A stretch of DNA of 64,000 bases from Thermoplasmata archaeon (GCA_041489255.1 JBGPQV010000003.1:96001-160000), one strand, 5' to 3'; shown: positions 13,215 to 27,141, numbered from the stretch's first letter. Notes: generated by a model from the sequence alone, not told the origin. Numbers and translations are program-made.

Positions 13215-13640
13215 CTAAGGCTTCCCCGGCGCGGGCTCAGCGGTCAGGTTCTGCGCGGGCTCGACCCCGGTGTCGTTGTCAGGCCTCTTCATCCTGCTCC
13301 GGATGCGCCTGAAGTTCTTGGCGGGGACGCTGTTCTTGTCGACGGCTCCGATCATCATGTCAAGCTGGCTGGAGCCGACGACGTAGAGCTGCTTCAGGTC
13401 CGCCTCGTGCTCCTCGGTGATCTCCCTCAGCTCCCGCTTCTTCTGCTCCTGCTTCTCGTTCGAGGCGTTCGCCTTCCTGTGCTGTGCAAGGAGCTTCTGA
13501 TGCATAACGTCGATGTCGAGGTTCCCCTTCATCAGGGCCGCTCTCTCGGTGACCTGGAGGTCCTCGACCTTCTCGATGGTACCTAGGATCTGCGCTTCAC
13601 TGTATCCCAGTCTCTTCACCTCCTCCCCCATCAAAGACAC
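13215..13640 (-). CDS. Hypothetical helical/coiled-coil protein
   Basis: 141-aa ORF with host-like codon usage, GAGGTG upstream of GTG, terminator downstream. Confidence 0.75.
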   Translation of the reverse strand: MSLMGEEVKRLGYSEAQILGTIEKVEDLQVTERAALMKGNLDIDVMHQKLLAQHRKANASNEKQEQKKRELREITEEHEADLKQLYVVGSSQLDMMIGAVDKNSVPAKNFRRIRSRMKRPDNDTGVEPAQNLTAEPAPGKP

Positions 13641-13709
13641 GCACCGCGCACCTCATCCGAGGAGGTTAATGACGTTGGCGGGAAGATACTTCAACCCTCC
13701 CCGCTCGTG

Positions 13710-13770
13710 CACTGTGAAAACACTGTGAATGAACTGTGAAAACACTGTTAATACACTCTAAATACACTCT
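13710..13770. repeat. 11-bp tandem repeat array (about 5.5 units, CACTGTGAAAA-like)
   Basis: CACTGTGAAAA CACTGTGAATG AACTGTGAAAA CACTGTTAATA CACTCTAAATA CACTCT. Confidence 0.85.
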
Positions 13771-13787
13771 CGCCAAGGATAGGGATG

Positions 13788-14261
13788 TCAGTGCTCCGAA
13801 ACACCTTCTTGCGGACGCGCAGCTCCCAGAAGCTTGGACGACTTCGCCGCATCTGCACCGGAACCTCCGAGGCGAGGCGGGGGCGGCTGGAACCTCGCCG
13901 GTTGCTCATGCGGAACGCCTTTGTGCTCGCGCGTGTCCTCGCGCGGACGGCCGCCTCTGCTCTCGGACGCGGATTTACCGCCCGGCTTGGCGGTGAACCG
14001 CTTGCCGAGGGACCTCCCCACCGGCGTGAGCTCGTACACGATCATCCGCCTCGTTCCCGTATCGATGTAGGCTGTCTTGACCTCGATGCAGCCCTCCTCT
14101 ACCAGCTTCCTCAGCTCGTTCCCGGCGTGTGTCCTGCCGATCCCGAGGGCACTGGCCATGCCCGCCTGGGTCATCTCCACAGGGAAGACGTAATCATCGC
14201 GCGAACGCGGGCAGGTCATCAGGTGCGTGATGAGCTTTACCTTTATCGTGCATTCCGCCAT
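13788..14261 (-). CDS. Winged helix-turn-helix DNA-binding protein
   Basis: MTQAGMASALGIGRTHAGNELRKLVEEG helix-turn-helix plus wing VYELTPVG; TATA-like CTTATAC upstream. Confidence 0.8.
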   Translation of the reverse strand: MAECTIKVKLITHLMTCPRSRDDYVFPVEMTQAGMASALGIGRTHAGNELRKLVEEGCIEVKTAYIDTGTRRMIVYELTPVGRSLGKRFTAKPGGKSASESRGGRPREDTREHKGVPHEQPARFQPPPPRLGGSGADAAKSSKLLGAARPQEGVSEH

Positions 14262-14420
14262 AGAAGTCTCCTAGCGTAATACATTGACTAGGAAGTATAA
14301 GAAAAGTCCGGAGAATCGTTGAATTTAATGGGATAGTCTTGATATCGATAATGTCAATGAACGCGTTTCAGTGTCAAACGGGAATATTGATTGTGATAAT
14401 GAGGAGGAGCACGCCCATCT

Positions 14421-14560
14421 GCCGTCAGAGCAGTCAGTGGCGCCCTCGGTTACGCGGCGGACCGCGGCATAGAGTACCTGCAGACCGGGACGCTGGAGTG
14501 GGACTGGGGGCAGTTCGGGCTCAGCGTGGGCACAGAGGCCGCGGCGGGGGCGACGAGGGA
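14421..14560 (+). pseudogene. Startless fragment resembling the Gly/Ala-rich pre-toxin segment of Rhs/polymorphic toxins
   Basis: Frame reads AVSGALGYAADRGIEYLQTGTLEWDWGQFGLSVGTEAAAGA with host-like codons; stop codons immediately upstream, no start. Confidence 0.4.
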
Positions 14561-14619
14561 GACACGTATCCGGATGCCGGGAAGGCTGAAATCCCCGGAC
14601 GGCATGCGATGGCGGGAAC

Positions 14620-15510
14620 ATGGATGCGTTGACTCTGGCGGGAATCGTCCAGGACTGCCTCCCCGAGGTCCGCGTGAGGAGCGTTTCACGGCTGCAGGAA
14701 GGCTGGGCCAGCTTCGTCATCGAGGTCAACGGCGAGCTGATCTTCAGGTTTCAGAAGAGGCCGGAAGTGGAGGACAACCTGAGGAAGGAGATACGGCTGA
14801 TGCCCAAGCTGTCAGAACACCTCTCCTTTCGAGTTCCTTACTTCGAATATATCTGGGAAGGCGGCAAGGAATATGATGGTTGGTTCGTGGGCTACAGGAA
14901 GATCGATGGCGTTCCGATCGGCAGGTGGTGCACGAAGAAAGCGCACTCCGCCAGGATGATCCGCAACCTCGCCAGGATGCTCACCGAGATCCACCACTTC
15001 CCTGTGAAACGCTACCCAGTGCTCAAGCTGCTCTTCTTCGGACCAAGACAGCGGAAGGACAAGCTGAAGAACCTCTACGCGCAGGTAATGGAGAAGGTCC
15101 TGCCGATCCTCAGCGCGACGGAACGGCGCAGGACAATCGACTTCTTCGAACAGCAATTGGCGGTCGCGGAGAACTTCCGCTTCAACTCGACGTTGACACA
15201 CGACGACCTGAGCGGACCGCACATCCTGTGCGACAGGGGCGGCGACAGAATCAACGGAGTCATCGACTGGGAGGACGGCTGCACCGGGGACCCGGCGGTA
15301 GATTTCTACGGCATCCTCCAGGATTGTGGCCCATCCTTGACGAAAAAGGTGCTGGAGGGGTACAAGGGTGAGCCAGACCCCGGCATCATGCAGAGGGCCC
15401 GGCTCTATCTGGGTGTCGTCCCGTTCTACGAGGTCCTGTACGGTCAGGAGCACGACGAGGCGACGGCCAAGTTTGGACTGGCACGCCTGCGCGCAACCAT
15501 TCTGAGATGA
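14620..15510 (+). CDS. Aminoglycoside phosphotransferase (APH)/choline kinase-like protein
   Basis: EGW..V..VNGELIFRF, HDDLSGPHIL (Brenner motif), GVIDWED, GDPAVDF. Confidence 0.88.
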   Translation: MDALTLAGIVQDCLPEVRVRSVSRLQEGWASFVIEVNGELIFRFQKRPEVEDNLRKEIRLMPKLSEHLSFRVPYFEYIWEGGKEYDGWFVGYRKIDGVPIGRWCTKKAHSARMIRNLARMLTEIHHFPVKRYPVLKLLFFGPRQRKDKLKNLYAQVMEKVLPILSATERRRTIDFFEQQLAVAENFRFNSTLTHDDLSGPHILCDRGGDRINGVIDWEDGCTGDPAVDFYGILQDCGPSLTKKVLEGYKGEPDPGIMQRARLYLGVVPFYEVLYGQEHDEATAKFGLARLRATILR

Positions 15511-15533
15511 TGCGGCGCAGTCCGATGCTGTGC

Positions 15534-15791
15534 CTATTCCTTGCTGCCCCAGCGGCTGAACATTATGATGAAGATTATCATCACGACGGTCAGCACGACA
15601 GCGACGACCATGTAGCCAATCCAGCCCATCAGGCTGATGGTGGCGAATGTCGTGTCGATCCCCGCGACCTTCAGCCCGCCCATGACGACCTGGTTCCAGA
15701 TCAGGGCGATCACCAGCCCGAAGGCTGTGGCCATAGAGGCCGCGACAGTCTTGCGCACTTCTGCTTTTGACAGTTTCCGTTCCTCTGGCAT
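15534..15791 (-). CDS. Small two-TM protein (DUF5654-like)
   Basis: TAFGLVIALIWN and YMVVAVVLTVV motifs. Confidence 0.75.
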   Translation of the reverse strand: MPEERKLSKAEVRKTVAASMATAFGLVIALIWNQVVMGGLKVAGIDTTFATISLMGWIGYMVVAVVLTVVMIIFIIMFSRWGSKE

Positions 15792-15976
15792 ATAGGAGAT
15801 TCCTCCTCGCGGCGAGCAAGAATGTCGGTTTATATTAATTCTTTGGAATTCACGCGCGGAGCCGCACGCGATTTCGGTTCACCGGCATGCTCAGACCGAT
15901 GAAAAGAGAAAAATAGTCGGGGCGCGCATCGGATGTCCGGCGAAGAGCCTCAGTCAGATGGGATGGTGTTCGAGCA

Positions 15977-16603
15977 ATGGATCCCGCTACGGTAGTCCTG
16001 CGACTGTTCATAGGCTTCAATCTGGCCCTCGGCATCGGACTCGAGAGGCAGCTGAGCAGGAAGCCCGCGGGCTTCGGCACGTTCACCTTCGTCTCCACCG
16101 GCGCCTGCGTCATCGCGATAATGGCTGAGGAACTCGAGCCCGACAACATGCTTGCGCTCCTCGGCGGCGCGATCACGGGCATAGGTTTCCTCGGAGCCGG
16201 CTCTCTGATAAGGAGCCAGGACAGGGTTTTCGGGTTCACCACCGCCGCGCTCATATGGGCCATGGCGGCGATGGGGCTGGCCATTGGGGTCGGATTGTTC
16301 TACCTGGCTTTCTCCTTCTATGGCGTAGTATGGGTAGTCATAATGACGGACAGGCTGCTCGAGCGGCAAGGCTTCGGTTCGCACGCGAAAGTCCTGGATA
16401 TCGTCCTTGCCGAGCCCGCCAATCTCGATGACATCAAGGCGATCGTGCCCGTGAAATCCGCCTACTACGAGCGGTATTACTTCGACAAAGGCACGCAGGT
16501 GATGCAGTTCAAAGCGCATGTCCGCATCAAGCCTGCCGATGTGGAGAACCTTCTATTGAGCTTGCAGCGGAACGCGAAGGTGAAGAGCGTCTCTCTGGAG
16601 TAG
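15977..16603 (+). CDS. MgtC/SapB family membrane protein
   Basis: IGLERQ..KPAG..TF, ITGIGFLGAG, GFTTAALIW..AAMGLAIG. Confidence 0.92.
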   Translation: MDPATVVLRLFIGFNLALGIGLERQLSRKPAGFGTFTFVSTGACVIAIMAEELEPDNMLALLGGAITGIGFLGAGSLIRSQDRVFGFTTAALIWAMAAMGLAIGVGLFYLAFSFYGVVWVVIMTDRLLERQGFGSHAKVLDIVLAEPANLDDIKAIVPVKSAYYERYYFDKGTQVMQFKAHVRIKPADVENLLLSLQRNAKVKSVSLE

Positions 16604-16817
16604 TTCTTGGTGAATCGTAAGCGCCAATAGACAAGGTTTGCGAGGGAGATTCTTGGTTGATGGCTCGCTCGTTCACATACGCTGCATGCCTTCCGAGTCC
16701 GAAGCCTCGAACTCCGCTTCCTCCTTGGCTGGAGCCACCATCTCTTCCCGGATAAGTTGAGCGTCACGAGGATTTTAACCGTTATGGTGACAACGGCCAG
16801 GATGGCAGTTAGAACTC

Positions 16818-18584
16818 ATGGTGGCTGGCCCCACGGCAATCAACAAGATATCGGGGTGGAAACAAAAGAAGTGGGGAATGCTTTTATCATTGTTCGGAGA
16901 ATCCCCGAATGTGCGAGAAGGGGCAAGGTTGGGGCGGTCGGAACCGCTGGTATTGGTCAGAAGAATTCCAACTGTCGTGATTATCGTCACGATCTCCATT
17001 TCACTACTGTGTGGTGGTGTGGCGGCGCAGGATCAGCGCAAACCGGTTGTTGGCGACTTTTTTGAATATGAATACGACATTTGGCTCGACAGAGGATGGG
17101 GCAACTACGAAGGTTATACGGAGCATACCTTTTCGCACGGCCTCTACACCGTCATCAACGTCACCCAGAACACCTGCACCATGAAGGCGGTTGTCTCCTG
17201 GGAATATCGTGCTTCCGACGGAACATATCAGGCCGGAGGTTTCGACCACAACATCACATTCTCGCTTGACACACGGCTCTATATTTCCGGCTATGAACTT
17301 GACGAGAACGTGACCGATCCCGCGGTATGGTTTTACGCCGGCACCGGCCTGCAGACCGGCCAGCATGTGAAGATCATCGGACAGGACTTCGTCGTCCAGA
17401 GCACATCGTCCTCCGTCTGGATGGGTTGGCTTCCCATATCAGGGGTGGAGCTGAAGAACACTGGCAGTTTCTATAGGAACGATGTATACGGAGCTTTCAC
17501 AGCGACATTCACCGACATTTATCATTTCGATGGATCTACGGGGTACCTTCTCCATGAGTGGTACGAAGAGGTCGATGCTGACGGGCATGGAAATGGATTC
17601 AGATGGAGAGAGGAAGTTAGGGTAATACAATCCAGCTATGCCGCGCCGGTTCACATCTCGACCTTACTGGTCTCATATGTGGTCGTACCTGGCATTATCA
17701 TTGGCCCAATCATCGCAGTGATCTACCGCTCCTACGGACCACGTAGAGTCCGTTTGGCGATGCAGAGCGCGCTCGCGTTCGGCTCTCCCACAAAGGAGCG
17801 TTTTGTTATGAAACGCGTCCGGAGGAGAAGGATGCCGAGGCTGGCGCTCGAAGTGAAGGCGACGGCTGGCCTGACTTTGTACTTTGAACCTTTCATGGAG
17901 CGATTCGTCAACAGGGCCGTGGCGACGAAGTCAAAGATCGCTGTTGCGCGGCAAGACGGAAAGCTCAGAGCGATAATATTGCGTGAGAGGAAAACGCGTT
18001 TCGGATCATACTTCGGGCCACAAGAGCTCGCGGTCCCCATGGTGAAGTACCTGCGAGTCATTTACTTCCACTCTGAGCACCCGGACGGTGGTGAGATTCT
18101 TGAGAGATACAAGGTCCTTCAGCTCTCGCCAATCCCCGACAGGGATTACGACACAGAGGCCGCGCGTCCGTTGAACATCAGTGACTGGGGCGCCGTGACA
18201 AGAATCTGGAGGAAGGTCTACGGTGAGGACGATGAATTCCTCACGACCGCTAGAGAGGACGGGGATATGTGTATTGTCGGCGTCGATGAAGGGGCTTTGG
18301 CCGGGTTCGGCCTCTGCTCGGTTACGGGAGATGTCGGCCGCATGCACAGCCTGACCGTTTCTCCGGAGCGAAGGAACAGAGGCATTGGGCGGCAAATCAG
18401 CTTAGCCCGCCTGCAGGCTATGCGCACCCTGGGTGTTTCACGGGTGATCATGGAAGTCGATATCGGCAACATTCCCTCACTCAGAATCGCCGCGGCCCTG
18501 GGATTTTCGGAAATCGGCGAGACCTACATAGTGACAAGGAAGAAAGGCGGTCTGGGGGATGTCCCGTTCCGGAGATGGATATGA
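16818..18584 (+). CDS. Single-pass membrane protein: extracellular beta-rich domain plus cytoplasmic GNAT acetyltransferase (start uncertain)
   Basis: Signal-like VVIIVTISISLLCGGVAAQ, TM YVVVPGIIIGPIIAVIY, GNAT motif A LTVSPERRNRGIG and motif B NIPSLRIAAALGF. Confidence 0.8.
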   Translation: MVAGPTAINKISGWKQKKWGMLLSLFGESPNVREGARLGRSEPLVLVRRIPTVVIIVTISISLLCGGVAAQDQRKPVVGDFFEYEYDIWLDRGWGNYEGYTEHTFSHGLYTVINVTQNTCTMKAVVSWEYRASDGTYQAGGFDHNITFSLDTRLYISGYELDENVTDPAVWFYAGTGLQTGQHVKIIGQDFVVQSTSSSVWMGWLPISGVELKNTGSFYRNDVYGAFTATFTDIYHFDGSTGYLLHEWYEEVDADGHGNGFRWREEVRVIQSSYAAPVHISTLLVSYVVVPGIIIGPIIAVIYRSYGPRRVRLAMQSALAFGSPTKERFVMKRVRRRRMPRLALEVKATAGLTLYFEPFMERFVNRAVATKSKIAVARQDGKLRAIILRERKTRFGSYFGPQELAVPMVKYLRVIYFHSEHPDGGEILERYKVLQLSPIPDRDYDTEAARPLNISDWGAVTRIWRKVYGEDDEFLTTAREDGDMCIVGVDEGALAGFGLCSVTGDVGRMHSLTVSPERRNRGIGRQISLARLQAMRTLGVSRVIMEVDIGNIPSLRIAAALGFSEIGETYIVTRKKGGLGDVPFRRWI

Positions 18585-19807
18585 CGGCCGAGGCTGGATT
18601 CGAACCAGCGTATCTCGCGGGCAAGAGCTGGTTCTCGCTGGCCAAAATCCCTCTCGAGATTCCACCGATGCGCAATCCGAACATCAAGTGGCCTAATGAC
18701 GACGATCTCGATTGCGCGTACGTCCCCAGCGCGATGGTTCAACTGGTGGGCGATGGAGTCCCGGTGATGAAAGCGCTCCGCGACGAGAACAGGAGCGGTT
18801 TCCTTCCTGACAAGAGAATGATTGTGGCGGGGCAAGAACTCGTGCTCAATGTGAAAGGATGCGGCTCAATCATGGCCCCATATGAATTGAGCACGATTGA
18901 CGGTGCCACGTTGGCGGGAATATGGCGCGGCGATGTCCAAGTTCAAGAGAAGTTGAGGACGCTGCAATCTGACGGCATCATAACAAGCGAGCAGTGGTTC
19001 TCTGGCGAGAGCCCCTATGGCGGTCAGGGCTACGAGAACGCGGTCGACTCCCTTCGAATCAGTGAACTCGCAGGCAGAGGACTGCACATCGAAGGATTCC
19101 ACATCTGCCCGGTGCTCCAGGCATGCATCTTGCCGAGGCGATACTGGAATCTCGCAAGGCACCTCTACTGGTTCAGGAGGCACGAAGGACCGATTTGCCA
19201 AACGATTCGTATGATGCCGTCCGATGTCAGGCTGTACTTCCACGGATCAACCACCCTTGGCGCGGACCCCATGTCTGTGTGTAAGAGCTTCGACGTACGC
19301 GAGGACGAAGAGTACAAAGCATTCGAGCTGAACCTCGCTCGCACAGGGGTTGCCGCATTGACCCTTCTGGCACGGACGTTGCGCTACGATCAATCATCCG
19401 GCAACTGGCGGGGGCTGGATTATGAAGACGTATGGCTGGACAAGGACGCAGTTCTCGCACCCGATGGGAAGCTCTACTTCGCGGACCTAGATGGTCTGGC
19501 TTCGGTGAAGCTCGCAGAGGAAGGGATTGAAGGCGCGATCAGGAAACAGTTCGACAAACACGCCTACGAGTTCTTCTATGCACTCATGGCCATCGAGCGT
19601 GAGAGACAACGGACGCATGGTAGGATGGATTGGCAGGAAACTGCACGCTATGTCGGGGAGATGTTGCGGCTCGCCATGAACGGCGATAAGCACGTGCAGG
19701 TGGAATGGGACGGGGGGGATATCCTGATGCTGTACACCAGAGGCGCTATGCCAAGCTCATCATTTGAATTGCTGAACCTTCGGAGGGATGCACAAGATGC
19801 TCACTAG
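18581..19807 (+). CDS. Hypothetical protein, possibly SelO/protein-kinase-like fold
   Basis: ATGA overlap with upstream gene; LNVKGCG..GESPYGGQG and DKDAVLAPDGKLYFADLD motifs suggest a kinase-like fold. Confidence 0.7.
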   Translation: MTAEAGFEPAYLAGKSWFSLAKIPLEIPPMRNPNIKWPNDDDLDCAYVPSAMVQLVGDGVPVMKALRDENRSGFLPDKRMIVAGQELVLNVKGCGSIMAPYELSTIDGATLAGIWRGDVQVQEKLRTLQSDGIITSEQWFSGESPYGGQGYENAVDSLRISELAGRGLHIEGFHICPVLQACILPRRYWNLARHLYWFRRHEGPICQTIRMMPSDVRLYFHGSTTLGADPMSVCKSFDVREDEEYKAFELNLARTGVAALTLLARTLRYDQSSGNWRGLDYEDVWLDKDAVLAPDGKLYFADLDGLASVKLAEEGIEGAIRKQFDKHAYEFFYALMAIERERQRTHGRMDWQETARYVGEMLRLAMNGDKHVQVEWDGGDILMLYTRGAMPSSSFELLNLRRDAQDAH

Positions 19808-21269
19808 CAGATTGCGCGCGATCTTGGAGGCGCTCTCCGCGCGTGTCCAGGTGTCAATGCAGGAAGACGAGTTGTTTTACTTAATGGGCAAGAAGGTCGT
19901 CACGTTCGTTTCGAATGATGAATACAGGCGTCTCTCAGCGGGAGCATACTCACACGACACCGCAGCATCAGAGGTCCGCGAGGGAGAGCGGAATCTTGAG
20001 AGCCTCGACGCAAGCTACGCTCGATCGGCATCGCCAGACGAGAAAGAATACCTCAAAGCGCGAGCTGATGCCATGCAGAAGCTCCGCGAGGCTCAGCAGC
20101 AGATGCTGATGCTAATGCACCAAGCCACTTCGATCCACCGCTTCGTGCAGCTGAAATCGCTGGGCGGTTATGTCGCGATATCAGAGCACGGCAGGGAAGT
20201 CCTCGATGCTCTCCCCGCGCTCGCTTCCATTCAGACGGGGTCCGAACCAGCTGAGGCTGACGGCGTGCTCTATTCGCTCGAAGCGGGTGTGACTAGAGTC
20301 GGTAAAATCGCGAAGGCGATCCAGACCGCCCTCCAAAAGTGGGATACATCCTACGTGGCGACCAATTTCTCCGACACGCAATTGCTCGCGGCAGCCAGTG
20401 ATATCGCACCCTTTGGCGGCGATTACATCTCGTTTCTCAAGACGGCGCAGCAACTGGCCGAGATTCTGGCGAAAGCGAGACACGTCTCCCTCTACGCAGC
20501 AGGGCCAGAGCCTGACAAATGCCAACGCGCTTCCGTTGTGGCGACAGAAATGATGGATATCCTAGGTTCAAAGGTCCAATGGGGCAATCGCAAGTCCTCG
20601 CTTACAGCGGCTTCAATGTCATCGGAGCTGAATAGGTACTCGGGATTTGACACAATCAATGCAGTCATCGCTATTCACGCGGACATGCTTGGTGCGAAAC
20701 CTATTTCATCGCGGGACACAGACAAGCCGCGCAACCCAAGTTACCAAGATTCGTCTCTGGGCTTCCAGAGGCTTCTGTTGATGCTCCCCGTGAGCCCTGA
20801 GGTTCTCGCGCTCAGGATGCAAACCATTGTGGACCATTTAAAGAAACGCGTGCCCGACGCACCCATTGTGGAGATCTGCGATTCGGCTGCGATTCTGTGT
20901 GCCGTCAAGGAGCGATCGCCAGACGATCTCATGGCTTCCTTCGACGCAGCAGATGCGTGGCTGAAGAATGCGCTGAGCAGTCATGTCGTCGCCGCGGCAC
21001 TCGCAGCCGCGCTTCCGGGCCCTGTGGAGACCACGAAGCTTTGGACGCGTCACCTGATCTCCAAGCTTGAAGCAACGAACAAGACAGCGGGAAACGTCGA
21101 GCCTTTACACCTCTCTCTCAAAGCGCTTTGGTCCTCGGTTTTCGGTCCGAAGCGGGACATCCCCATGCTGTTCGGCATGGCGGCATACTGGATGTACCTC
21201 TACGAGGAGACGATACGGGAATTCCGCGCACATCCATTGCACGTCCACTACGTGCCGTGGTTTGGCTGA
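19788..21269 (+). CDS. Hypothetical alpha-helical protein with His-rich C-terminus
   Basis: 493-aa ORF overlapping the upstream gene; N-terminal coiled-coil tendency; ends HPLHVHYVPWFG. Confidence 0.75.
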   Translation: MHKMLTSRLRAILEALSARVQVSMQEDELFYLMGKKVVTFVSNDEYRRLSAGAYSHDTAASEVREGERNLESLDASYARSASPDEKEYLKARADAMQKLREAQQQMLMLMHQATSIHRFVQLKSLGGYVAISEHGREVLDALPALASIQTGSEPAEADGVLYSLEAGVTRVGKIAKAIQTALQKWDTSYVATNFSDTQLLAAASDIAPFGGDYISFLKTAQQLAEILAKARHVSLYAAGPEPDKCQRASVVATEMMDILGSKVQWGNRKSSLTAASMSSELNRYSGFDTINAVIAIHADMLGAKPISSRDTDKPRNPSYQDSSLGFQRLLLMLPVSPEVLALRMQTIVDHLKKRVPDAPIVEICDSAAILCAVKERSPDDLMASFDAADAWLKNALSSHVVAAALAAALPGPVETTKLWTRHLISKLEATNKTAGNVEPLHLSLKALWSSVFGPKRDIPMLFGMAAYWMYLYEETIREFRAHPLHVHYVPWFG

Positions 21270-21285
21270 GCCCGAAGAAAGATAA

Positions 21286-21360
21286 TGCTCCCGCCGGGAT
21301 TTGAACCCGAGTCGAAAGCTCGAGAGGCTTTCATGATTGACCGGACTACACTACGGGAGC
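21286..21360 (-). tRNA. tRNA-Glu (anticodon CUC)
   Basis: Reverse complement GCTCCCGTAGTGTAGTCCGGTCAATCATGAAAGCCTCTCGAGCTTTCGACTCGGGTTCAAATCCCGGCGGGAGCA; loop CT-CTC-GA. Confidence 0.95.
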
Positions 21361-21481
21361 TTTGCGTCGACTAAGTAGGAGGATATCATAAACCTTGCTC
21401 AGAGAACCGCAGCGACTCCCGAAGTTGAGAAATAGCCAAGGGAACTTCTCCTCTCCGCAGTCCGCTTGATGGCGGGAGAGA

Positions 21482-22084
21482 ATGACAGAGGCGATACTGA
21501 GAAGGCACTTTCTGAATCGCGAGAATTGGCGTGCGTGGCTCGAAGTGAATCACGCGTCCGCGAATGAGCTCTGGCTGATTCTCTACAAGAAGCACACGAA
21601 GAAATCCAGCATCCGCCTCGACGAGGCTGTCGAGGAAGCGCTGTGCTTCGGGTGGATCGACGGGAAGCTGAGGAGGATCGATGACGAGAAGCATGAGATC
21701 CGGTTCACCCCTCGGAAGATGGGCAGCACTTGGTCCGAAACCAACATCAACAGGGTCAAGAGGCTAATCAAGGAAGACCGGATGACCAGCGTGGGGCTGA
21801 AAAAGTACAGGGACGGCATGAGAGATCCGAGGATGAAGCTGCTCAGGAAGGATTTCGAGATACCTCAGTTCATCGTCGCCGCATTGAAACGGAACAAGAG
21901 GGCGTGGGACGCCTTCGACAAGCTCGCTCCCTCTCGGAAGCAACAGATCGTGTGGTGGATAGCGACCGCCAAGAGGGAGGAGACCCGCGAGAAAAGGATC
22001 AAGGAGACGATCAGGCGAAGTCTGACGGGGAAGTTCACCTGGTGGGACGACCAATACAGCAAGCCCGAGCCGTCAAAGGTCTGA
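21482..22084 (+). CDS. YdeI/OmpD-associated family protein
   Basis: WRAWLE.NH, EAVEEALCFGWIDG, RFTPRK.GS.WS.TN, AKREETREKRI. Confidence 0.9.
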   Translation: MTEAILRRHFLNRENWRAWLEVNHASANELWLILYKKHTKKSSIRLDEAVEEALCFGWIDGKLRRIDDEKHEIRFTPRKMGSTWSETNINRVKRLIKEDRMTSVGLKKYRDGMRDPRMKLLRKDFEIPQFIVAALKRNKRAWDAFDKLAPSRKQQIVWWIATAKREETREKRIKETIRRSLTGKFTWWDDQYSKPEPSKV

Positions 22085-22132
22085 ATCCGCGCATTTAATA
22101 TCCGTCGAACCGGTGTCGCCGCCGGTGTTAAC

Positions 22133-22957
22133 ATGAAGGTCCTCCTCGCTCAGCTCTCGCCCAAGGTCGGGGACAAAGAAGCCAACATCGCCATGATGGA
22201 GAAGGCGATCAGAAAAACGAAACCCGACCTCGCCGTCTTCGGTGAACTCTTCCTCACAGGGTACATGGCCCGCGACTCGTGGAGGACGCTCGCAGAGCCC
22301 GTGCCCGGACCGAGCACGCAAGCGGTCTCCGAGATAGCGCGCAAGAACTCGACCCACATCATCTTCGGGATGCCCGAGAGGGACACGAAGGCCAGACTGC
22401 TCTACAACGTGGCGGTACTCGTCACTCCAGATGGCACCGTGGAGAAGTACCGCAAGATCCACCCCGCCAACTTCGGGCCCTTCGAGGAGGGAATCTACTT
22501 CGCACGAGGGCGGGAGCCGAAGCTTGTCGAGACGGAGCTGGGCAAGATTGGCCTGATGATCTGCTTCGATTCCTTCTTCCCCGAGCTCGCGAAGGTCCTC
22601 GCTCTTCAGGGCGCCGATATCTTGGCGGTAATCTCCGCCGCGCCGAACACGAGCAAGCCGATGTTCGACAAGGTGCTGCCCGCCAGGGCGGTGGAGGACA
22701 CGTGCTTCGTGCTCTACTGCAACCTCGTCGGCACAGAACTCAACATTGTCTTCGCTGGCGGGACTCAGGCAATAGGGCCTCGCGGGGAGTACATCGGTGT
22801 CGCCAAGGACTACAAGGAGGACCTCGTGTTGGTTGATCTCGACCTCGCTGACCTGGGACCCGCCAGGCAGGCAAGGCCGACAATCAGAGACACCGACCCT
22901 CATCTGGTCGACCTCGCCCTCGGTCGCGGCGGGAAGAAGGGGCGGCGCAGGGACTAG
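22133..22957 (+). CDS. Carbon-nitrogen hydrolase (nitrilase superfamily)
   Basis: Catalytic E (FGELFLTGY), K (YRKIH), C (ICFDSFFPE). Confidence 0.92.
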   Translation: MKVLLAQLSPKVGDKEANIAMMEKAIRKTKPDLAVFGELFLTGYMARDSWRTLAEPVPGPSTQAVSEIARKNSTHIIFGMPERDTKARLLYNVAVLVTPDGTVEKYRKIHPANFGPFEEGIYFARGREPKLVETELGKIGLMICFDSFFPELAKVLALQGADILAVISAAPNTSKPMFDKVLPARAVEDTCFVLYCNLVGTELNIVFAGGTQAIGPRGEYIGVAKDYKEDLVLVDLDLADLGPARQARPTIRDTDPHLVDLALGRGGKKGRRRD

Positions 22958-25900
22958 CCGTCGTCTGGCGGTGGCGGCGGGGCCTTCCTTTCAGCTAGCT
23001 CCTGCTGTTGCTCAGATTCCTTCCTCTTCCTTCGCTTCATCAGCAGGAGAATCACCGCCATGATGATGACGATGATGATCGCGACTGCGATGAGGATGAC
23101 CGATGTGTCGGTTCCTGAGGACCGCGACAGGGTCGTGCCGTCCTCTTGGGCCGGAGCGGACTCAATCCCTCGCGAGTTCACCGCGGTCACGTTGTAGTAA
23201 TAGATAGTCCCATCCGCCAGCCCGAGACCGACATTGTCATCGAGGAAGGTCGTCACCGTGACCAGGGGGCCGTTGACCTTCGTCCTCTGACCATTAGGCT
23301 GCGTCATCCTGTAGACGTTGTAGCCCCTCAGATCTGTCAATGGCGATGAGTCCGTGTTCAGGCTCGGCGCGGCCCAGCTCAGCCTGAGGGCTCCGAAGCC
23401 CTCCGGCACGACGGTGAGACCCGCCGGCGGGTTCGGCACCCTCTCGATGATCGAGGTCGTGTAGGTTTGACTCCGGACTCCGTTCAGGCTGCCGTCGACC
23501 GCCCAGATGTAGTAGGAGATCGAACCTGCGTGCGGCTGGCCCGCCACCTCGTAAGAGTACTCATCGGCGGTCACGACAGCCATGCTCACATTCCGCCTGA
23601 CGCCGTCGACATCCGTGTAGTCCAGCTTCACTTCCTGGACGAGGATGTTGTCGGTCACATTGGCGGTGATATTGAGCGCGACGGTGACCGGCCATGTCGC
23701 CCGGGGCGTATGTTCGATCGAGGGCGGCACCGACTCGGTTGTCTGGAAGATGCCCGTGTTCGTCTCCCAGTTCCCGCTGCTGTCGACCGCGGAGACCTTG
23801 TATTGATATGCGCCGACCAGATTCACCGCGTATTCGTAGTAGAAGGTCGGGCCACCGTCCATCGACTGATTCTCCGGCGTCTGGCCCGGGGCGGTGATTT
23901 CCACCCAGACCCCGGCGAGCAGGTAGTTGTCGGTGACATCCGCCGTGATGTTCGTCGAAGAGAGAAGCGCGACCGGGCTCGGCGTGGCGGCAAGATTGAC
24001 GATCAGCGGGGGCGTGTTGTCCTCGACATCGAAGGTGCTGACCGCCACCGCCCACAGGTCGACCGAATCCTTCGCAGACACTTTGAATATGTAAGCTCCG
24101 AGCTGGTCGGGAATCGTCTCCCTGGAGTACCTCGGTCCCGCGATCATCGACCGGTTCGTCCGCGTGAGGTCCGGCGCCGTCACCTCGACCCAGACCTCCG
24201 AGAGCAGGTAGTTGTCGGATACGAGCGCCGAGAGGTTCGTCGATGCGAACACTTCCACCGGGTTCGGGACTGCCCTCAAGTCCGAGATGGATGGTCTCGT
24301 CGTGTCCTCACATGTGAATTGACCCGAGGTCGAGTTCCGGTTACCGCTGGTGTCGGATGCCCAAATCACGAACGTGTGCAGACCGAGCATCCCGCAGTTC
24401 CTCTCCAGGAAGTAGCGCATCCCGAATGGGTCATACGACATCGTGGAGTTGATGGTACCGGCAGCGGGATTCGTAACGTTGAGCCAGACTTGGCCAACGG
24501 CGACATTGTCGCGAATCACGGCTGACACATTTACGGGGAAGTAGACCTCCTGAGGATCCGGGATTGCCGTGGCTGACGTGAGCGTCGGCCTCTCGACATC
24601 CACGAATGAGGCGGTGGTGAAGGTCCAACTGTATGGCGTTGCGAGGTTGTTGCCAGGGTCGGATGCGTCTCTGGCCGATGTCGTGAAGTTCGCGGAGTAC
24701 TGGGTGCCCGACGCAAGCACGCTCGTCGGGCCGAAGGTCATTATGCTCCCTGCCCAAGACAGCGTTCCCGCCACGGGAGTCCATGTGGCAGTGTCCTTCA
24801 GCGAGAAAGCCGACTCCGCCGATGTCCTCATCATCGGCTCGGACCATGCTGCCTGGACATTCGCGCTGGTCGGAACGCCGGTCTCCCCCGAGAACGGGCT
24901 TGTGGAGGAGACTATTGGCGGTGTCGAGTCGATCTCGAGCGCGGGAGAATATCCGTACCCGGTTCCCCCAATTGTGTCGACGACGACGGCCTGCAAAACG
25001 ACCGCAGTGCTGTCTTCAAATGGGACTGTCCAAGCGTATGGCCTGGCATCGCCTGCCACGCCCTGGAGTCCAGCGATCTGATGGTCGAAGGGACCAGCTC
25101 CCGTCACTGAGTAATTGACCCAGACCTTGAGGTTCCCGATGGAATCCTCGGCGTCATACGCCGTCCAATCGATGTTGTGAATCGTCCCGCCGGTCCAGCT
25201 CTCCCCGCCTGCAGGTGCGGTGATGCCGATCGTCGGCGGCGTATTGACAATCGTGGTGAAGGACCATATATAATCAAGGATCATGGAATTGCCTGGATTG
25301 GATACGTCCCTCGCGCCGGTCCAGACCGTCGCGGTGTAGGTCGTGGAATATGAGAAATCCACATGATCAATGGTCAACGTGTCATCTGGGAAGATCCTCT
25401 GCGACCAGCTGAATATCAAGGTGCCCATATTCGGCACCAGAGTGAAGGCTGATTCAACTGAGGCGGTGTCCATTCTCTCCGAGAACTGGACAACGATAGG
25501 AGCAGTGAGAGCGACCCCCGTGCCCGTCGGTGACGCGCTCACGACGAATGGCCACGTCGAGTCTATCTGGGGGACCAAGACCGTGCTGTACCCTTTTAGT
25601 CCGTTTGCGTCGATGACGGTCGCGTTTATCCTCACATCGGTTGCGTCGATTGTCGGCACTGTCCATCCGTAGATGGTCGCGCCAGCAAGCGGTCCTGCAA
25701 TCGTGCCTGAGCTCGGCGTCGAGGTGTAGTTGAGGTAGATCCTGAGGCTACCGGGCGGAGTCGTGTCGTCGCTCATTGTCCAAGTGATCATCTGCGAAGA
25801 ACCGCCCGTCCAGTCCTGCGCGCCACTCGGGTTTGTCAGAGAAATCGAAGGTGGGTTGTTCACAGGCGGAGCCGTGCCGCTTCCGAAGCAGTAGATCCTT

Positions 25901-27141
25901 CCACCGTTGCCCCATGTGCCGACGCAAACCCTCCCGTCTGAGATCGCAGGTGAAGAGTCAACGTCCCCATACAACGGCGCTTGCCACCTGTATGCGGCGG
26001 GATTCGTCTGGTTCGCGTTGAACGAGTAGAGGTAGTTCGATTTAGATCCGATGAAGACCTTGCCGTCCGAAATGGCGGGGGAAGACCAGATGTCTCCTCC
26101 TGTCGCGTAGTTCCAGACCACGGCACCTGTCTGCGCATCAAGCGCGTAGAGATTGTCGTCGACGGAACCCACGAAGACCTTGCCGTAAGCCACCGCAGCC
26201 GAGGAGAAGAATGATTGCGAGCCCGAAGGCGGGAATGCCCATATCTGGCTCAGGTCATTCGCGCTGAGGGCGCGGAACTTGGCTGCTGTGGTCGTGAATG
26301 TGTAGCCATCCCCGATGTAGACTTTCCCATCGTAGATCACCGGAGAACCGTACATGCTCTTGTACCTGGCAGATGTGGCGCTGGCAACCGCAGCTCCCGA
26401 TTGGGCGAGGCTAATCTTGTAGACGTACCCGTCGGGTGCCGCGAGGTACGCGTAGCCATTGCAGATCGCTGGTGCACCATACAGGCCGTAATTGGTGCCA
26501 TCGGGGTGAGCCGACTGTGTTTGGAAGTACCAGACCTCGCTCCCTGTGTTCTGATTCAGGGCATGCAGCCGCCTGTCAGCCCCTCCTATGAAAACCATGC
26601 CCTGGGCGACCGCAGGCGTCCCGCTCCCCCATAGAGTGTTCGGGACCGTGAACCTCCATTTGACGGTGCCGTTGTTGGCATGAAGGGCATAGAGCTTATC
26701 GGCTCCAAAGAACAGCAGTCCGTTGGAATATGCTGGAGTGGCGCTCACGCCAGTGTTGCTCGAAACCTGTGCGTCAGTTCTCATCCTCCAAGCCAGGGTG
26801 CCGTTGTTGATGTGGAAGGCGAGCATCGAGTCCCCTGAGGGAGAACCCATCCCGATGAACACCTTGCCCTCGGCAATCGTTGGCGAACCGTACATGTTCG
26901 GGCCGGTGGAATTGTACCAAAAGACCCTCTCATCGTCCGGGGAAGGTGACTTCGTGAGCGACGAATGCGTCTCGTTGTAGGTGTACATCGGCCAGGGATA
27001 TGTGGTGGTGGCCATAGGTTGAAGCGAGTCACTGCCACTGTTCCCCCAAGGCCGAACCGGTTCGCTGGCGGTGAGCCAAGGTGCCTGCGCCACAACCATG
27101 AATCCTGCTGCCAGCACGAACACGAGGCCAAGGCGACTCAA
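22954..27141 (-). CDS. Large surface protein: PQQ-like beta-propeller, Ig-like repeats, FN3, C-terminal TM anchor
   Basis: Signal peptide; repeated SSPAI.DGKVF.G / LYAL.A.TG..VW blades; SP..G..GV...FSE.M Ig repeats; PNPPAGL..W..GYNVYR FN3; TM followed by KRRKRK. Confidence 0.88.
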   Translation of the reverse strand: MSRLGLVFVLAAGFMVVAQAPWLTASEPVRPWGNSGSDSLQPMATTTYPWPMYTYNETHSSLTKSPSPDDERVFWYNSTGPNMYGSPTIAEGKVFIGMGSPSGDSMLAFHINNGTLAWRMRTDAQVSSNTGVSATPAYSNGLLFFGADKLYALHANNGTVKWRFTVPNTLWGSGTPAVAQGMVFIGGADRRLHALNQNTGSEVWYFQTQSAHPDGTNYGLYGAPAICNGYAYLAAPDGYVYKISLAQSGAAVASATSARYKSMYGSPVIYDGKVYIGDGYTFTTTAAKFRALSANDLSQIWAFPPSGSQSFFSSAAVAYGKVFVGSVDDNLYALDAQTGAVVWNYATGGDIWSSPAISDGKVFIGSKSNYLYSFNANQTNPAAYRWQAPLYGDVDSSPAISDGRVCVGTWGNGGRIYCFGSGTAPPVNNPPSISLTNPSGAQDWTGGSSQMITWTMSDDTTPPGSLRIYLNYTSTPSSGTIAGPLAGATIYGWTVPTIDATDVRINATVIDANGLKGYSTVLVPQIDSTWPFVVSASPTGTGVALTAPIVVQFSERMDTASVESAFTLVPNMGTLIFSWSQRIFPDDTLTIDHVDFSYSTTYTATVWTGARDVSNPGNSMILDYIWSFTTIVNTPPTIGITAPAGGESWTGGTIHNIDWTAYDAEDSIGNLKVWVNYSVTGAGPFDHQIAGLQGVAGDARPYAWTVPFEDSTAVVLQAVVVDTIGGTGYGYSPALEIDSTPPIVSSTSPFSGETGVPTSANVQAAWSEPMMRTSAESAFSLKDTATWTPVAGTLSWAGSIMTFGPTSVLASGTQYSANFTTSARDASDPGNNLATPYSWTFTTASFVDVERPTLTSATAIPDPQEVYFPVNVSAVIRDNVAVGQVWLNVTNPAAGTINSTMSYDPFGMRYFLERNCGMLGLHTFVIWASDTSGNRNSTSGQFTCEDTTRPSISDLRAVPNPVEVFASTNLSALVSDNYLLSEVWVEVTAPDLTRTNRSMIAGPRYSRETIPDQLGAYIFKVSAKDSVDLWAVAVSTFDVEDNTPPLIVNLAATPSPVALLSSTNITADVTDNYLLAGVWVEITAPGQTPENQSMDGGPTFYYEYAVNLVGAYQYKVSAVDSSGNWETNTGIFQTTESVPPSIEHTPRATWPVTVALNITANVTDNILVQEVKLDYTDVDGVRRNVSMAVVTADEYSYEVAGQPHAGSISYYIWAVDGSLNGVRSQTYTTSIIERVPNPPAGLTVVPEGFGALRLSWAAPSLNTDSSPLTDLRGYNVYRMTQPNGQRTKVNGPLVTVTTFLDDNVGLGLADGTIYYYNVTAVNSRGIESAPAQEDGTTLSRSSGTDTSVILIAVAIIIVIIMAVILLLMKRRKRKESEQQQELAERKAPPPPPDDG

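Follow-up and report, generated by a model that had tools for sequence, protein, structure and literature searches.

Three overlapping genes lie beside a tRNA-Glu gene in a 64,000-nucleotide stretch of DNA from a Thermoplasmata archaeon (GCA_041489255.1 JBGPQV010000003.1:96001-160000), a stretch that we call the window and from whose start all positions are counted. They encode, in order, a membrane-anchored protein with a cytoplasmic GNAT acetyltransferase domain (gene 1), a protein predicted to adopt a SelO-like kinase fold (gene 2), and a predicted all-helical protein of an orphan family (gene 3). An earlier reading of this DNA, made from the sequence alone, had described three overlapping open reading frames (ORFs) with an ATGA at the first junction, more A/T-ending codons than their neighbors, and a 16-nucleotide gap to the 3′ end of the tRNA gene, and had suggested a horizontally acquired transmembrane signalling or conflict system. 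We found that the genes belong to a set that is widespread in uncultured archaea, which we tentatively read as a protein-modification system.

The descriptive part of the sequence-only reading held up (Table 1). At the junction of genes 1 and 2, the ATGA at 18581-18584 combines the TGA stop of gene 1 (18582-18584) with an in-frame ATG of gene 2, which has an additional ATG six bases ahead, at 18575. The TAG stop of gene 2 (19805-19807) overlaps the beginning of gene 3, for which there are candidate ATGs at 19788 and 19797, and the gene 3 stop is indeed 16 nucleotides from the tRNA-Glu 3′ end. The fraction of G or C at third codon positions (GC3) was 0.65, 0.68, and 0.67 for genes 1, 2, and 3, whereas 42 long ORFs in the window (a reference set that includes some spurious frames) had a median of 0.79, and overall GC content was 0.52-0.58 within the module versus ~0.59-0.65 in the flanking DNA. 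A TATA-box-like word 40 nucleotides upstream of the gene 1 ATG, spotted by eye, is a candidate TATA box that we infer from its sequence. Because all three ORFs are conserved in other genomes, we regard them as real genes rather than chance frames.

Table 1. Features of the window mentioned in the text, with the flanking features last
Feature	Position	Strand	Remarks
Variable block	16604-21285		4,682 bp; three genes and 214 nucleotides upstream; from blastn against a same-genus genome
ATTTTAA, TATA-box-like word	16772-16778	+
Gene 1	16818-18584	+	588 amino acids from first ATG; true start may be further downstream
Hydrophobic segment 1 of gene 1, residues 43-72	16944-17033	+	Kyte-Doolittle, window 19, peak 2.35; signal peptide or N-terminal anchor
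Ectodomain of gene 1, residues 73-274	17034-17639	+	Three N-x-S/T sequons; homologous to split-layout anchor protein
Transmembrane segment of gene 1, residues 275-306	17640-17735	+	Hydropathy peak 2.5; Arg-rich stretch next
Cytoplasmic module of gene 1, residues ~352-588	17871-18581	+	Homologous to split-layout free-standing GNAT protein (~256-298 amino acids)
GNAT domain of gene 1, residues 468-563	18219-18506	+	Pfam Acetyltransf_1
Coenzyme A-binding motif RNRGIG (R-x-x-G-x-G) of gene 1, residues 519-524	18372-18389	+	Alignment of 17 sequences
Gene 2, predicted SelO-like kinase-fold protein	18575-19807	+	410 amino acids, or 408 from ATG at 18581
K94 of VKGCG (residues 93-97) of gene 2	18854-18856	+	Invariant; aligned with E. 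coli SelO K107 of LKGAG
R212-x2-P-S-x2-R219 of gene 2	19208-19231	+	Invariant; resembles E. coli SelO R170-x2-P-S-x2-R177
D289-K-D291-A...F-A-D304-L-D-G307 of gene 2	19439-19495	+	Invariant; likely counterpart of SelO N-T-D-N...D256-Y-G
Gene 3, predicted all-helical protein, orphan family	19788-21269	+	493 amino acids
Gene 3 tail HPLHVHYVPWFG	21231-21266	+	H482, P483, and H485 invariant; terminal Gly conserved family-wide
tRNA-Glu(CTC)	21286-21360	-	3′ end is right border of variable block
11-nucleotide tandem repeat (ACTGTGAA-containing unit)	13708-13762		Four or five copies
Small HTH_Crp_2 ORF	13788-14261	-	Its 3′ end adjoins the tandem repeat
APH-family phosphotransferase gene	14620-15510		Pfam E 5.5e-25; two genes upstream of module
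Predicted surface protein	22954-27141	-	1,395 amino acids

Four modules in two gene layouts

The GTDB collection contains at least 243 archaeal species genomes with a relative of gene 2, and we compared the loci of the best 80 of these. They come from Thermoplasmata-type archaea, except for three from Bathyarchaeia and one from a metagenome-assembled genome (MAG) labelled 'bacterium'. Recurrence of the triad in other genomes, on which the sequence-only reading had staked part of its case, was borne out: profiles of all three genes matched 77 of the 80 loci (the remaining three stop at a contig end), and gene 3 was adjacent to gene 2 in 79. A tblastn search with gene 1 also gave matches in 6 of 6 related loci, at 32-35% identity.

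The set takes two forms. In the fused layout (12 loci), which has the gene order of the window, an anchor-GNAT fusion is followed by gene 2 and then gene 3, whereas in the split layout (57 loci) gene 2 and gene 3 are followed by a gene for a separate protein with an ectodomain and a transmembrane segment, and then by a convergent, free-standing GNAT gene whose product matches the second half of gene 1 (hidden Markov model positions 305-555). In eight more loci the sequence runs out at the anchor gene; wherever a locus extends far enough for a verdict (69 of 69), all four modules are present: anchor, GNAT, gene 2, and gene 3. The layout of the window is the rarer one, and in its gene 1 the anchor and the GNAT have been fused into a single protein. 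At its cytoplasmic end, the split-layout anchor carries a zinc ribbon (Pfam Zn_ribbon_3, E 2.5e-6), which is absent from the fused form.

In a tree of gene 2, the genes from fused-layout loci formed one clade (13 tips, support 0.999), in which the window's copy has the deepest and longest branch. The copies from the three Bathyarchaeia MAGs formed a single group nested among those of Thermoplasmata, which suggests that the whole set has passed from one archaeal phylum to another. Gene 2 of the sole bacterial-labelled locus ('bacterium isolate DX1.bin10') barely differs from the copy in one Thermoplasmata MAG, and the label of this locus is probably a binning or naming error.

Gene 2 relatives were found in 7 of 41 related genomes (counting the source genome), and a phylum-wide sample of 301 genomes had them in 12. 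In ~31 split-layout loci the set stands next to a divergent ORF of one neighbor cluster whose scanned representative is an alanyl-tRNA synthetase (alaS), an association that is approximate because one representative per cluster was scanned and the clustering was polluted by spurious overlapping ORFs from high-GC genomes. Apart from this cluster, no outside cluster was common to more than ~12 of the 80 loci, and no transporter, exporter, or other biosynthetic gene was among their conserved neighbors. As a whole, the gene family looks like a chromosomal operon that is inherited stably and has undergone some transfer.

Predicted folds and conserved residues

We detected 547 homologs of gene 2, all unnamed or annotated as 'hypothetical' (the best non-self matches being 34-43% identical); in the few cases where an organism was named, it belonged to Thermoplasmata. 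Aligning 46 of these sequences gave 47 invariant columns and a mean column identity of 57%. The AlphaFold model of gene 2 had a predicted local distance difference test score (pLDDT) of 90.4 and a predicted template modeling score of 0.89, and when it was compared with the PDB using Foldseek, six YdiU/SelO entries came out on top (E 2.5e-4 to 7.2e-4), followed by protein kinases. The model thereby supports a protein-kinase-like fold closest to the solved SelO structures, which is what the sequence-only reading had proposed. That reading had also named two outcomes that would speak against it, a gene 2 lacking a kinase-like fold and genes that do not co-occur in other genomes; given the SelO-like fold of the model and the recurrence of the set elsewhere, we found neither.

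At the sequence level, the identification of gene 2 with SelO appears only weakly. For this comparison we used hhalign with a profile of 37 SelO sequences (E. coli SelO, 30 archaeal SelO sequences from the same phylum, and six enterobacterial proteins); an alignment with E. coli SelO alone had given a meaningless 49-column match, and the word-index matches of E. coli SelO were rejected as a profile seed because they were enterobacterial and too similar (at least 79% identical among the 120 matches listed). The 37-sequence profile paired DDNR...VKGxGS..PY of gene 2 with GDGR...LKGAG.TPYSR of SelO, placing K94 on K107, and an alternative alignment, non-significant at E 0.33, placed R212 and R219 on R170 and R177. 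The DKDA...ADLDG stretch (residues 289-307) was matched by eye to NTDN...LDYG of SelO (residues 244-258), where the catalytic loop and the metal-binding Asp of SelO lie. In P. syringae SelO, K113, E136, R176, and R183 hold the γ-phosphate of the flipped ATP and D262 is catalytic, as stated in a passage of PMC8097203; the numbers of these residues are six higher than in E. coli SelO. The candidate counterparts of these residues in gene 2 (K94, E164, R212, R219, and D304, with E164 and D304 placed by eye) are invariant or nearly so in the 46 sequences, which, if the correspondences hold, speaks for gene 2 being an active enzyme.

Searches with gene 2 gave no match in NCBIfam or PADLOC, and a sequence-profile search of the PDB returned nothing (best E = 1). 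Canonical SelO (PF02696) occurs in 44 of the 301 sampled genomes, in families (f38 and f20 among the matches listed) separate from those that carry gene 2 relatives. In four genomes, distant relatives of gene 2 matched its profile in two pieces (~50-95 and ~121-390) that are adjacent stretches of one open frame, which suggests a gene 2 subfamily with an insertion.

Gene 3 was more difficult to place. Its AlphaFold 2 model is all-helical (pLDDT 83.4) with the last seven residues disordered, and its best-predicted part is the N-terminal 140 amino acids (pLDDT 93-98), which form a helix-helix-strand unit and a long helical hairpin. With gene 3, a word-index search returned the protein itself alone, the Atlas gave no usable match, and Foldseek found no PDB match at E <= 0.001, although the helical hairpin dominated the matches in these fold searches and the C-terminal helical domain was barely probed. 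A PDB profile search yielded a best E of 0.012 over 54 residues and no DNA-binding family, and among 55 members searched against Pfam, no family was matched more than once and none was a DNA-binding family. A profile search of a 1.84-billion-protein library returned 180 representatives (88 at E <= 1e-10), and in related genomes the ORFs next after gene 2 were 18-21% identical to gene 3 and had the same ends.

An alignment of 55 gene 3 sequences had four invariant columns, G135, H482, P483, and H485, the last three of which belong to the C-terminal tail. The last residue was Gly in 75 of 75 full-length copies from related loci. Among 150 listed library matches, 84 had HPxH within the last 45 residues, and 83 of these 84 ended in Gly, the sole other one being a cut fragment. 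The tail follows the pattern HP[VGA]H.H, continued by T-V-(A/P)-x-F-G in the fused layout and by a Gly-rich stretch ending in F/M-x-G in the split layout. Because gene 3 lies directly after gene 2, evolves fast except in its tail, and always ends in Gly, it has the behavior of a dedicated substrate or partner whose terminus may enter an active site. A complex prediction for genes 2 and 3 scored 0.01 (against a mark of 0.32), which says nothing either way about binding. The helical character and histidine tail that the sequence-only reading had ascribed to gene 3 agree with the model and with the tail HPLHVHYVPWFG; that reading was silent on the four modules, the two layouts, and the constant terminal Gly.

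The receptor-like architecture with a cytoplasmic GNAT that had been noted for gene 1 was confirmed by hydropathy, which places an ectodomain of ~200 amino acids between two hydrophobic segments, and by Pfam, in which Acetyltransf_1 (PF00583) matched at E 1.1e-11 (45.4 bits versus a cut-off of 20.7). In the coenzyme A (CoA)-binding motif, the R and the second G are invariant across 17 sequences. When the cytoplasmic modules of 17 genomes were combined into a profile, its top PDB match was RimI (E 6e-12), followed by phosphinothricin acetyltransferase, Naa30, and Ard1. The module is RimI-like by this search alone; no NCBIfam equivalog was reached (RimI, TIGR01575, scored 28.2 bits versus a cut-off of 86.4), and Pfam gave no HlyC (PF02794) match. 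The ~100 amino acids N-terminal to the GNAT domain are conserved and matched no family, and in the Atlas the ectodomain matched unnamed archaeal clusters alone (score <= 0.87), with no known sensor fold.

A block present in one of two genomes of a genus

In a genome of the same genus, 58 bases unrelated to either end of the block replace the 4,682 bp that contain the module. Collinearity between the two genomes (blastn) ends at 16603, the stop of an MgtC gene, and restarts at 21286, the tRNA-Glu 3′ end, and in the sister genome MgtC (94% identical) and a CN-hydrolase (93%) lie on one contig, 909 bp apart. The block contains the three module genes alone, with no integrase, and of 14 families of direct repeats found in 13500-22500 none involves the tRNA end, and no attachment-site repeat turned up at the borders. 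A tRNA gene lies within the flanks of 6 of the 80 related loci and in none of them is it tRNA-Glu, so the tRNA-Glu gene is not part of the system elsewhere. Three of the 80 loci, each with the fused layout, have MgtC no more than 6 kb away, and because it is near the module in these other genomes, loss in the sister genome is as possible as gain here. We accordingly regard the block as a cassette-like segment that one genome has and the other lacks, a difference that may have arisen in either direction. The horizontal acquisition proposed by the sequence-only reading was thus sustained in part: the absence of the block from a same-genus genome and the low GC3 favor it, whereas the lack of an integrase and of a repeat of the tRNA end, together with the equal possibility of loss, do not.

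Among DNA contigs, pieces without differences were present in three further sediment runs, and single contigs span both block borders. No joint skipping the block was seen, although contigs cannot show absence, and a search of sequencing runs listed no matching RNA run. PADLOC-DB 2.0 had no family matching any of the three proteins at E <= 0.1, and with the set standing beside the alaS-scanned cluster in ~31 loci, the proposal of a conflict or defense system was not borne out.

Other features of the surroundings are as follows. The APH-family phosphotransferase gene lies outside the variable block, as the sister genome has it too. The tandem repeat adjoins the HTH_Crp_2 ORF, and on the other side of the module the predicted surface protein has a C-terminal hydrophobic stretch followed by a Lys/Arg-rich, Pro-rich tail.

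A candidate protein-modification system and its precedents

Our preferred reading, to which we assign a probability of about 0.45, is that the four modules make up a conserved archaeal protein-modification system in which gene 2 nucleotidylates the tail of gene 3 and the GNAT couples an acyl transfer to this step. It builds on the observed gene structure, conservation, layouts, folds, and motifs; what we infer is that gene 2 is catalytically active, which substrate it modifies and at which atom, and in what order the steps occur. As an active AMP (nucleotidyl) transferase, gene 2 would bind ATP in the flipped orientation of SelO. We propose AMP transfer because the fold and motifs of gene 2 point to it, SelO being the best structural match and carboxylate-adenylating enzymes the next best. 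Gene 3 would be its dedicated partner and probable substrate, recognized and modified at the C-terminal tail, either at the invariant histidines or at the carboxylate of the terminal Gly. The coupled acyl transfer would fall to the GNAT module, which the anchor would keep at the membrane. YdiU has been reported to modify His and Tyr.

Modification of a terminal carboxylate has a precedent in microcin maturation. MchC/MceJ is described, in a passage of PMC3281104, as a remote SelO homolog in complex with MchD/MceI, a HlyC-type acyltransferase, and HlyC-type acyltransferases are described in PMC8339906 as having a GNAT-superfamily fold. The MceJ/MceI pair modifies the C-terminal carboxylate of a microcin substrate with a Gly-rich tail, and in E. 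coli CFT073, where the gene order is mchB-mchC-mchD, the MchB tail ends in ...SSAGGGS. Both the microcin pair and the archaeal set thus place a SelO-related protein, a GNAT-fold acyltransferase, and a substrate gene (in archaea, a candidate one) side by side, and we propose tail nucleotidylation because the archaeal set shares these three ingredients at the fold level. Nolan and Walsh are said to have found in 2008 that the C-terminal modification of the microcin requires ATP. A bolder form of the same idea is C-terminal activation on a kinase fold, in which gene 2 would adenylate the terminal Gly of gene 3 and the tethered GNAT would pass the protein to a membrane acceptor (a lipid, a cell-surface component, or a protein), either directly or through a CoA thioester held in its intact CoA site; we consider this decidedly unlikely.

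Several results weigh against nucleotidylation of the gene 3 tail. In sequence, gene 2 is far from any SelO: it and two relatives matched no Pfam family at E <= 0.1, a search of the entire source genome with the PF02696 profile gave no match although controls were detected, the hhalign match to the 37-sequence profile was weak (E 0.015, probability 3%), and a forced global alignment with that profile failed. The Arg and Asp correspondences rest, at the sequence level, on the E 0.33 alignment and on reading by eye, and in the by-eye match an invariant Ala stands where SelO has the second Asn of N-T-D-N. The microcin comparison has its own gaps. An hhalign comparison of the gene 2 family with a single MchC sequence showed no similarity (E 0.45). 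The microcin substrate is an exported peptide of ~75 amino acids ending in Ser, whereas gene 3 is a 490-amino-acid, cytosolic helical protein ending in Gly; the microcin acyltransferase is of HlyC type, whereas the archaeal GNAT is RimI-like with a CoA motif; and the archaeal set, in an archaeal host, has no exporter among its conserved neighbors, in contrast to the enterobacterial microcin system.

Other explanations fit parts of these observations. In transmembrane signalling, the ectodomain would sense an outside cue, the GNAT and gene 2 would modify side chains of gene 3, and gene 3 would serve as the regulator by way of its N-terminal helix-strand domain and coiled coil. That gene 1 looks like a receptor and joins an ectodomain anchor to a GNAT, and that the N terminus of gene 3 is well predicted, is what one would expect, but Pfam and PDB profile searches showed no DNA-binding family in gene 3, the ectodomain lacks a known sensor fold, and strict conservation is confined to the extreme C terminus of gene 3, which side-chain signalling does not need, so that we think this reading unlikely. 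A role for gene 2 in a small-molecule pathway, as a NIS synthetase-like enzyme or a small-molecule kinase, would have the GNAT acylate the metabolite on which gene 2 acts, either a metallophore or an antibiotic that the pathway inactivates, and gene 3 serve as a scaffold or metal-binding helper through its HPxHxH tail. We find it improbable: SelO scored 4 Z units above the NIS synthetases in structure comparison, gene 2 has 410 amino acids compared with 548-595 residues in the listed chains (IucA/IucC type: SbnC, AcsD, AsbB, and IucA), the solved relatives of the GNAT are mostly protein N-terminal acetyltransferases (though phosphinothricin acetyltransferases score too), and the conserved neighbors at the 80 loci include no transporter or other biosynthetic gene.

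The absence of any sequence match to a kinase or SelO family and the Ala in place of the SelO Asn would also suit a gene 2 that is a pseudokinase without catalytic activity and serves purely as a scaffold for the GNAT and gene 3, leaving acetylation as the sole chemistry. However, the invariant columns of gene 2 cluster in the SelO nucleotide-binding motifs, which would be unusual for a dead enzyme, and we regard this explanation as quite improbable. We give least credence to an anti-virus or conflict island that is mobile and moved into the tRNA-Glu site, which would explain why one genome of the genus has the block and another does not, why a tRNA 3′ end marks its border, why GC3 is low, and why the distribution among the genomes searched is patchy. 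Such an island is very hard to reconcile with the lack of PADLOC matches, of an integrase, and of a tRNA-end repeat, with the rarity of tRNA genes near the set and its stable position beside the alaS-scanned cluster, and with the fact that no nuclease, protease, or other effector-like domain was found.

SelO is widespread, and its physiological targets are poorly known. To this picture the gene set adds a SelO-like family whose partners are fixed, namely the GNAT, the anchor in the membrane, and gene 3 as a large protein dedicated to it. Full-text literature searches found no description of the gene set, although the supplements of a SelO survey (PMC3281104, Tables S1 and S2) might list distant archaeal relatives. 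The component folds are already known; gene 2 is a separate SelO-like family and gene 3 an orphan partner family. With its strict conservation limited to the histidine motif and the terminal Gly, gene 3 is a clear candidate substrate, and tail modification is open to direct test with two or three recombinant proteins.

Compared with SelO/YdiU (PF02696, 478 amino acids), gene 2 is shorter, lacks a PF02696 match, and is always encoded with gene 3, the GNAT, and the membrane anchor. RimI, Ard1, Naa30, and Naa50 are the closest solved relatives of the gene 1 GNAT, whose R-x-x-G-x-G is intact; unlike these N-terminal acetyltransferases, the archaeal module has an extra N-terminal part of ~100 amino acids and is fused to, or encoded beside, a membrane anchor. 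The MceI-type acyltransferase, in contrast, is described in a passage of PMC8339906 as lacking CoA-binding elements, and because the archaeal GNAT keeps its CoA motif, the likeness to MceJ/MceI stands at the fold level only. MceJ/MchC with MceI/MchD is nonetheless the nearest precedent. To our knowledge, the microcin maturation pair is the only case of a SelO-related enzyme working with an acyltransferase, and it has been regarded as an enterobacterial speciality. If the terminal Gly of gene 3 were the target, C-terminal activation for conjugation would have arisen on the kinase fold besides the E1 fold. If, in addition, the tethered GNAT passed the activated protein to a membrane acceptor, archaea would have a new way of conjugating or anchoring proteins, to which the microcin MceIJ reaction would be the sole known relative.

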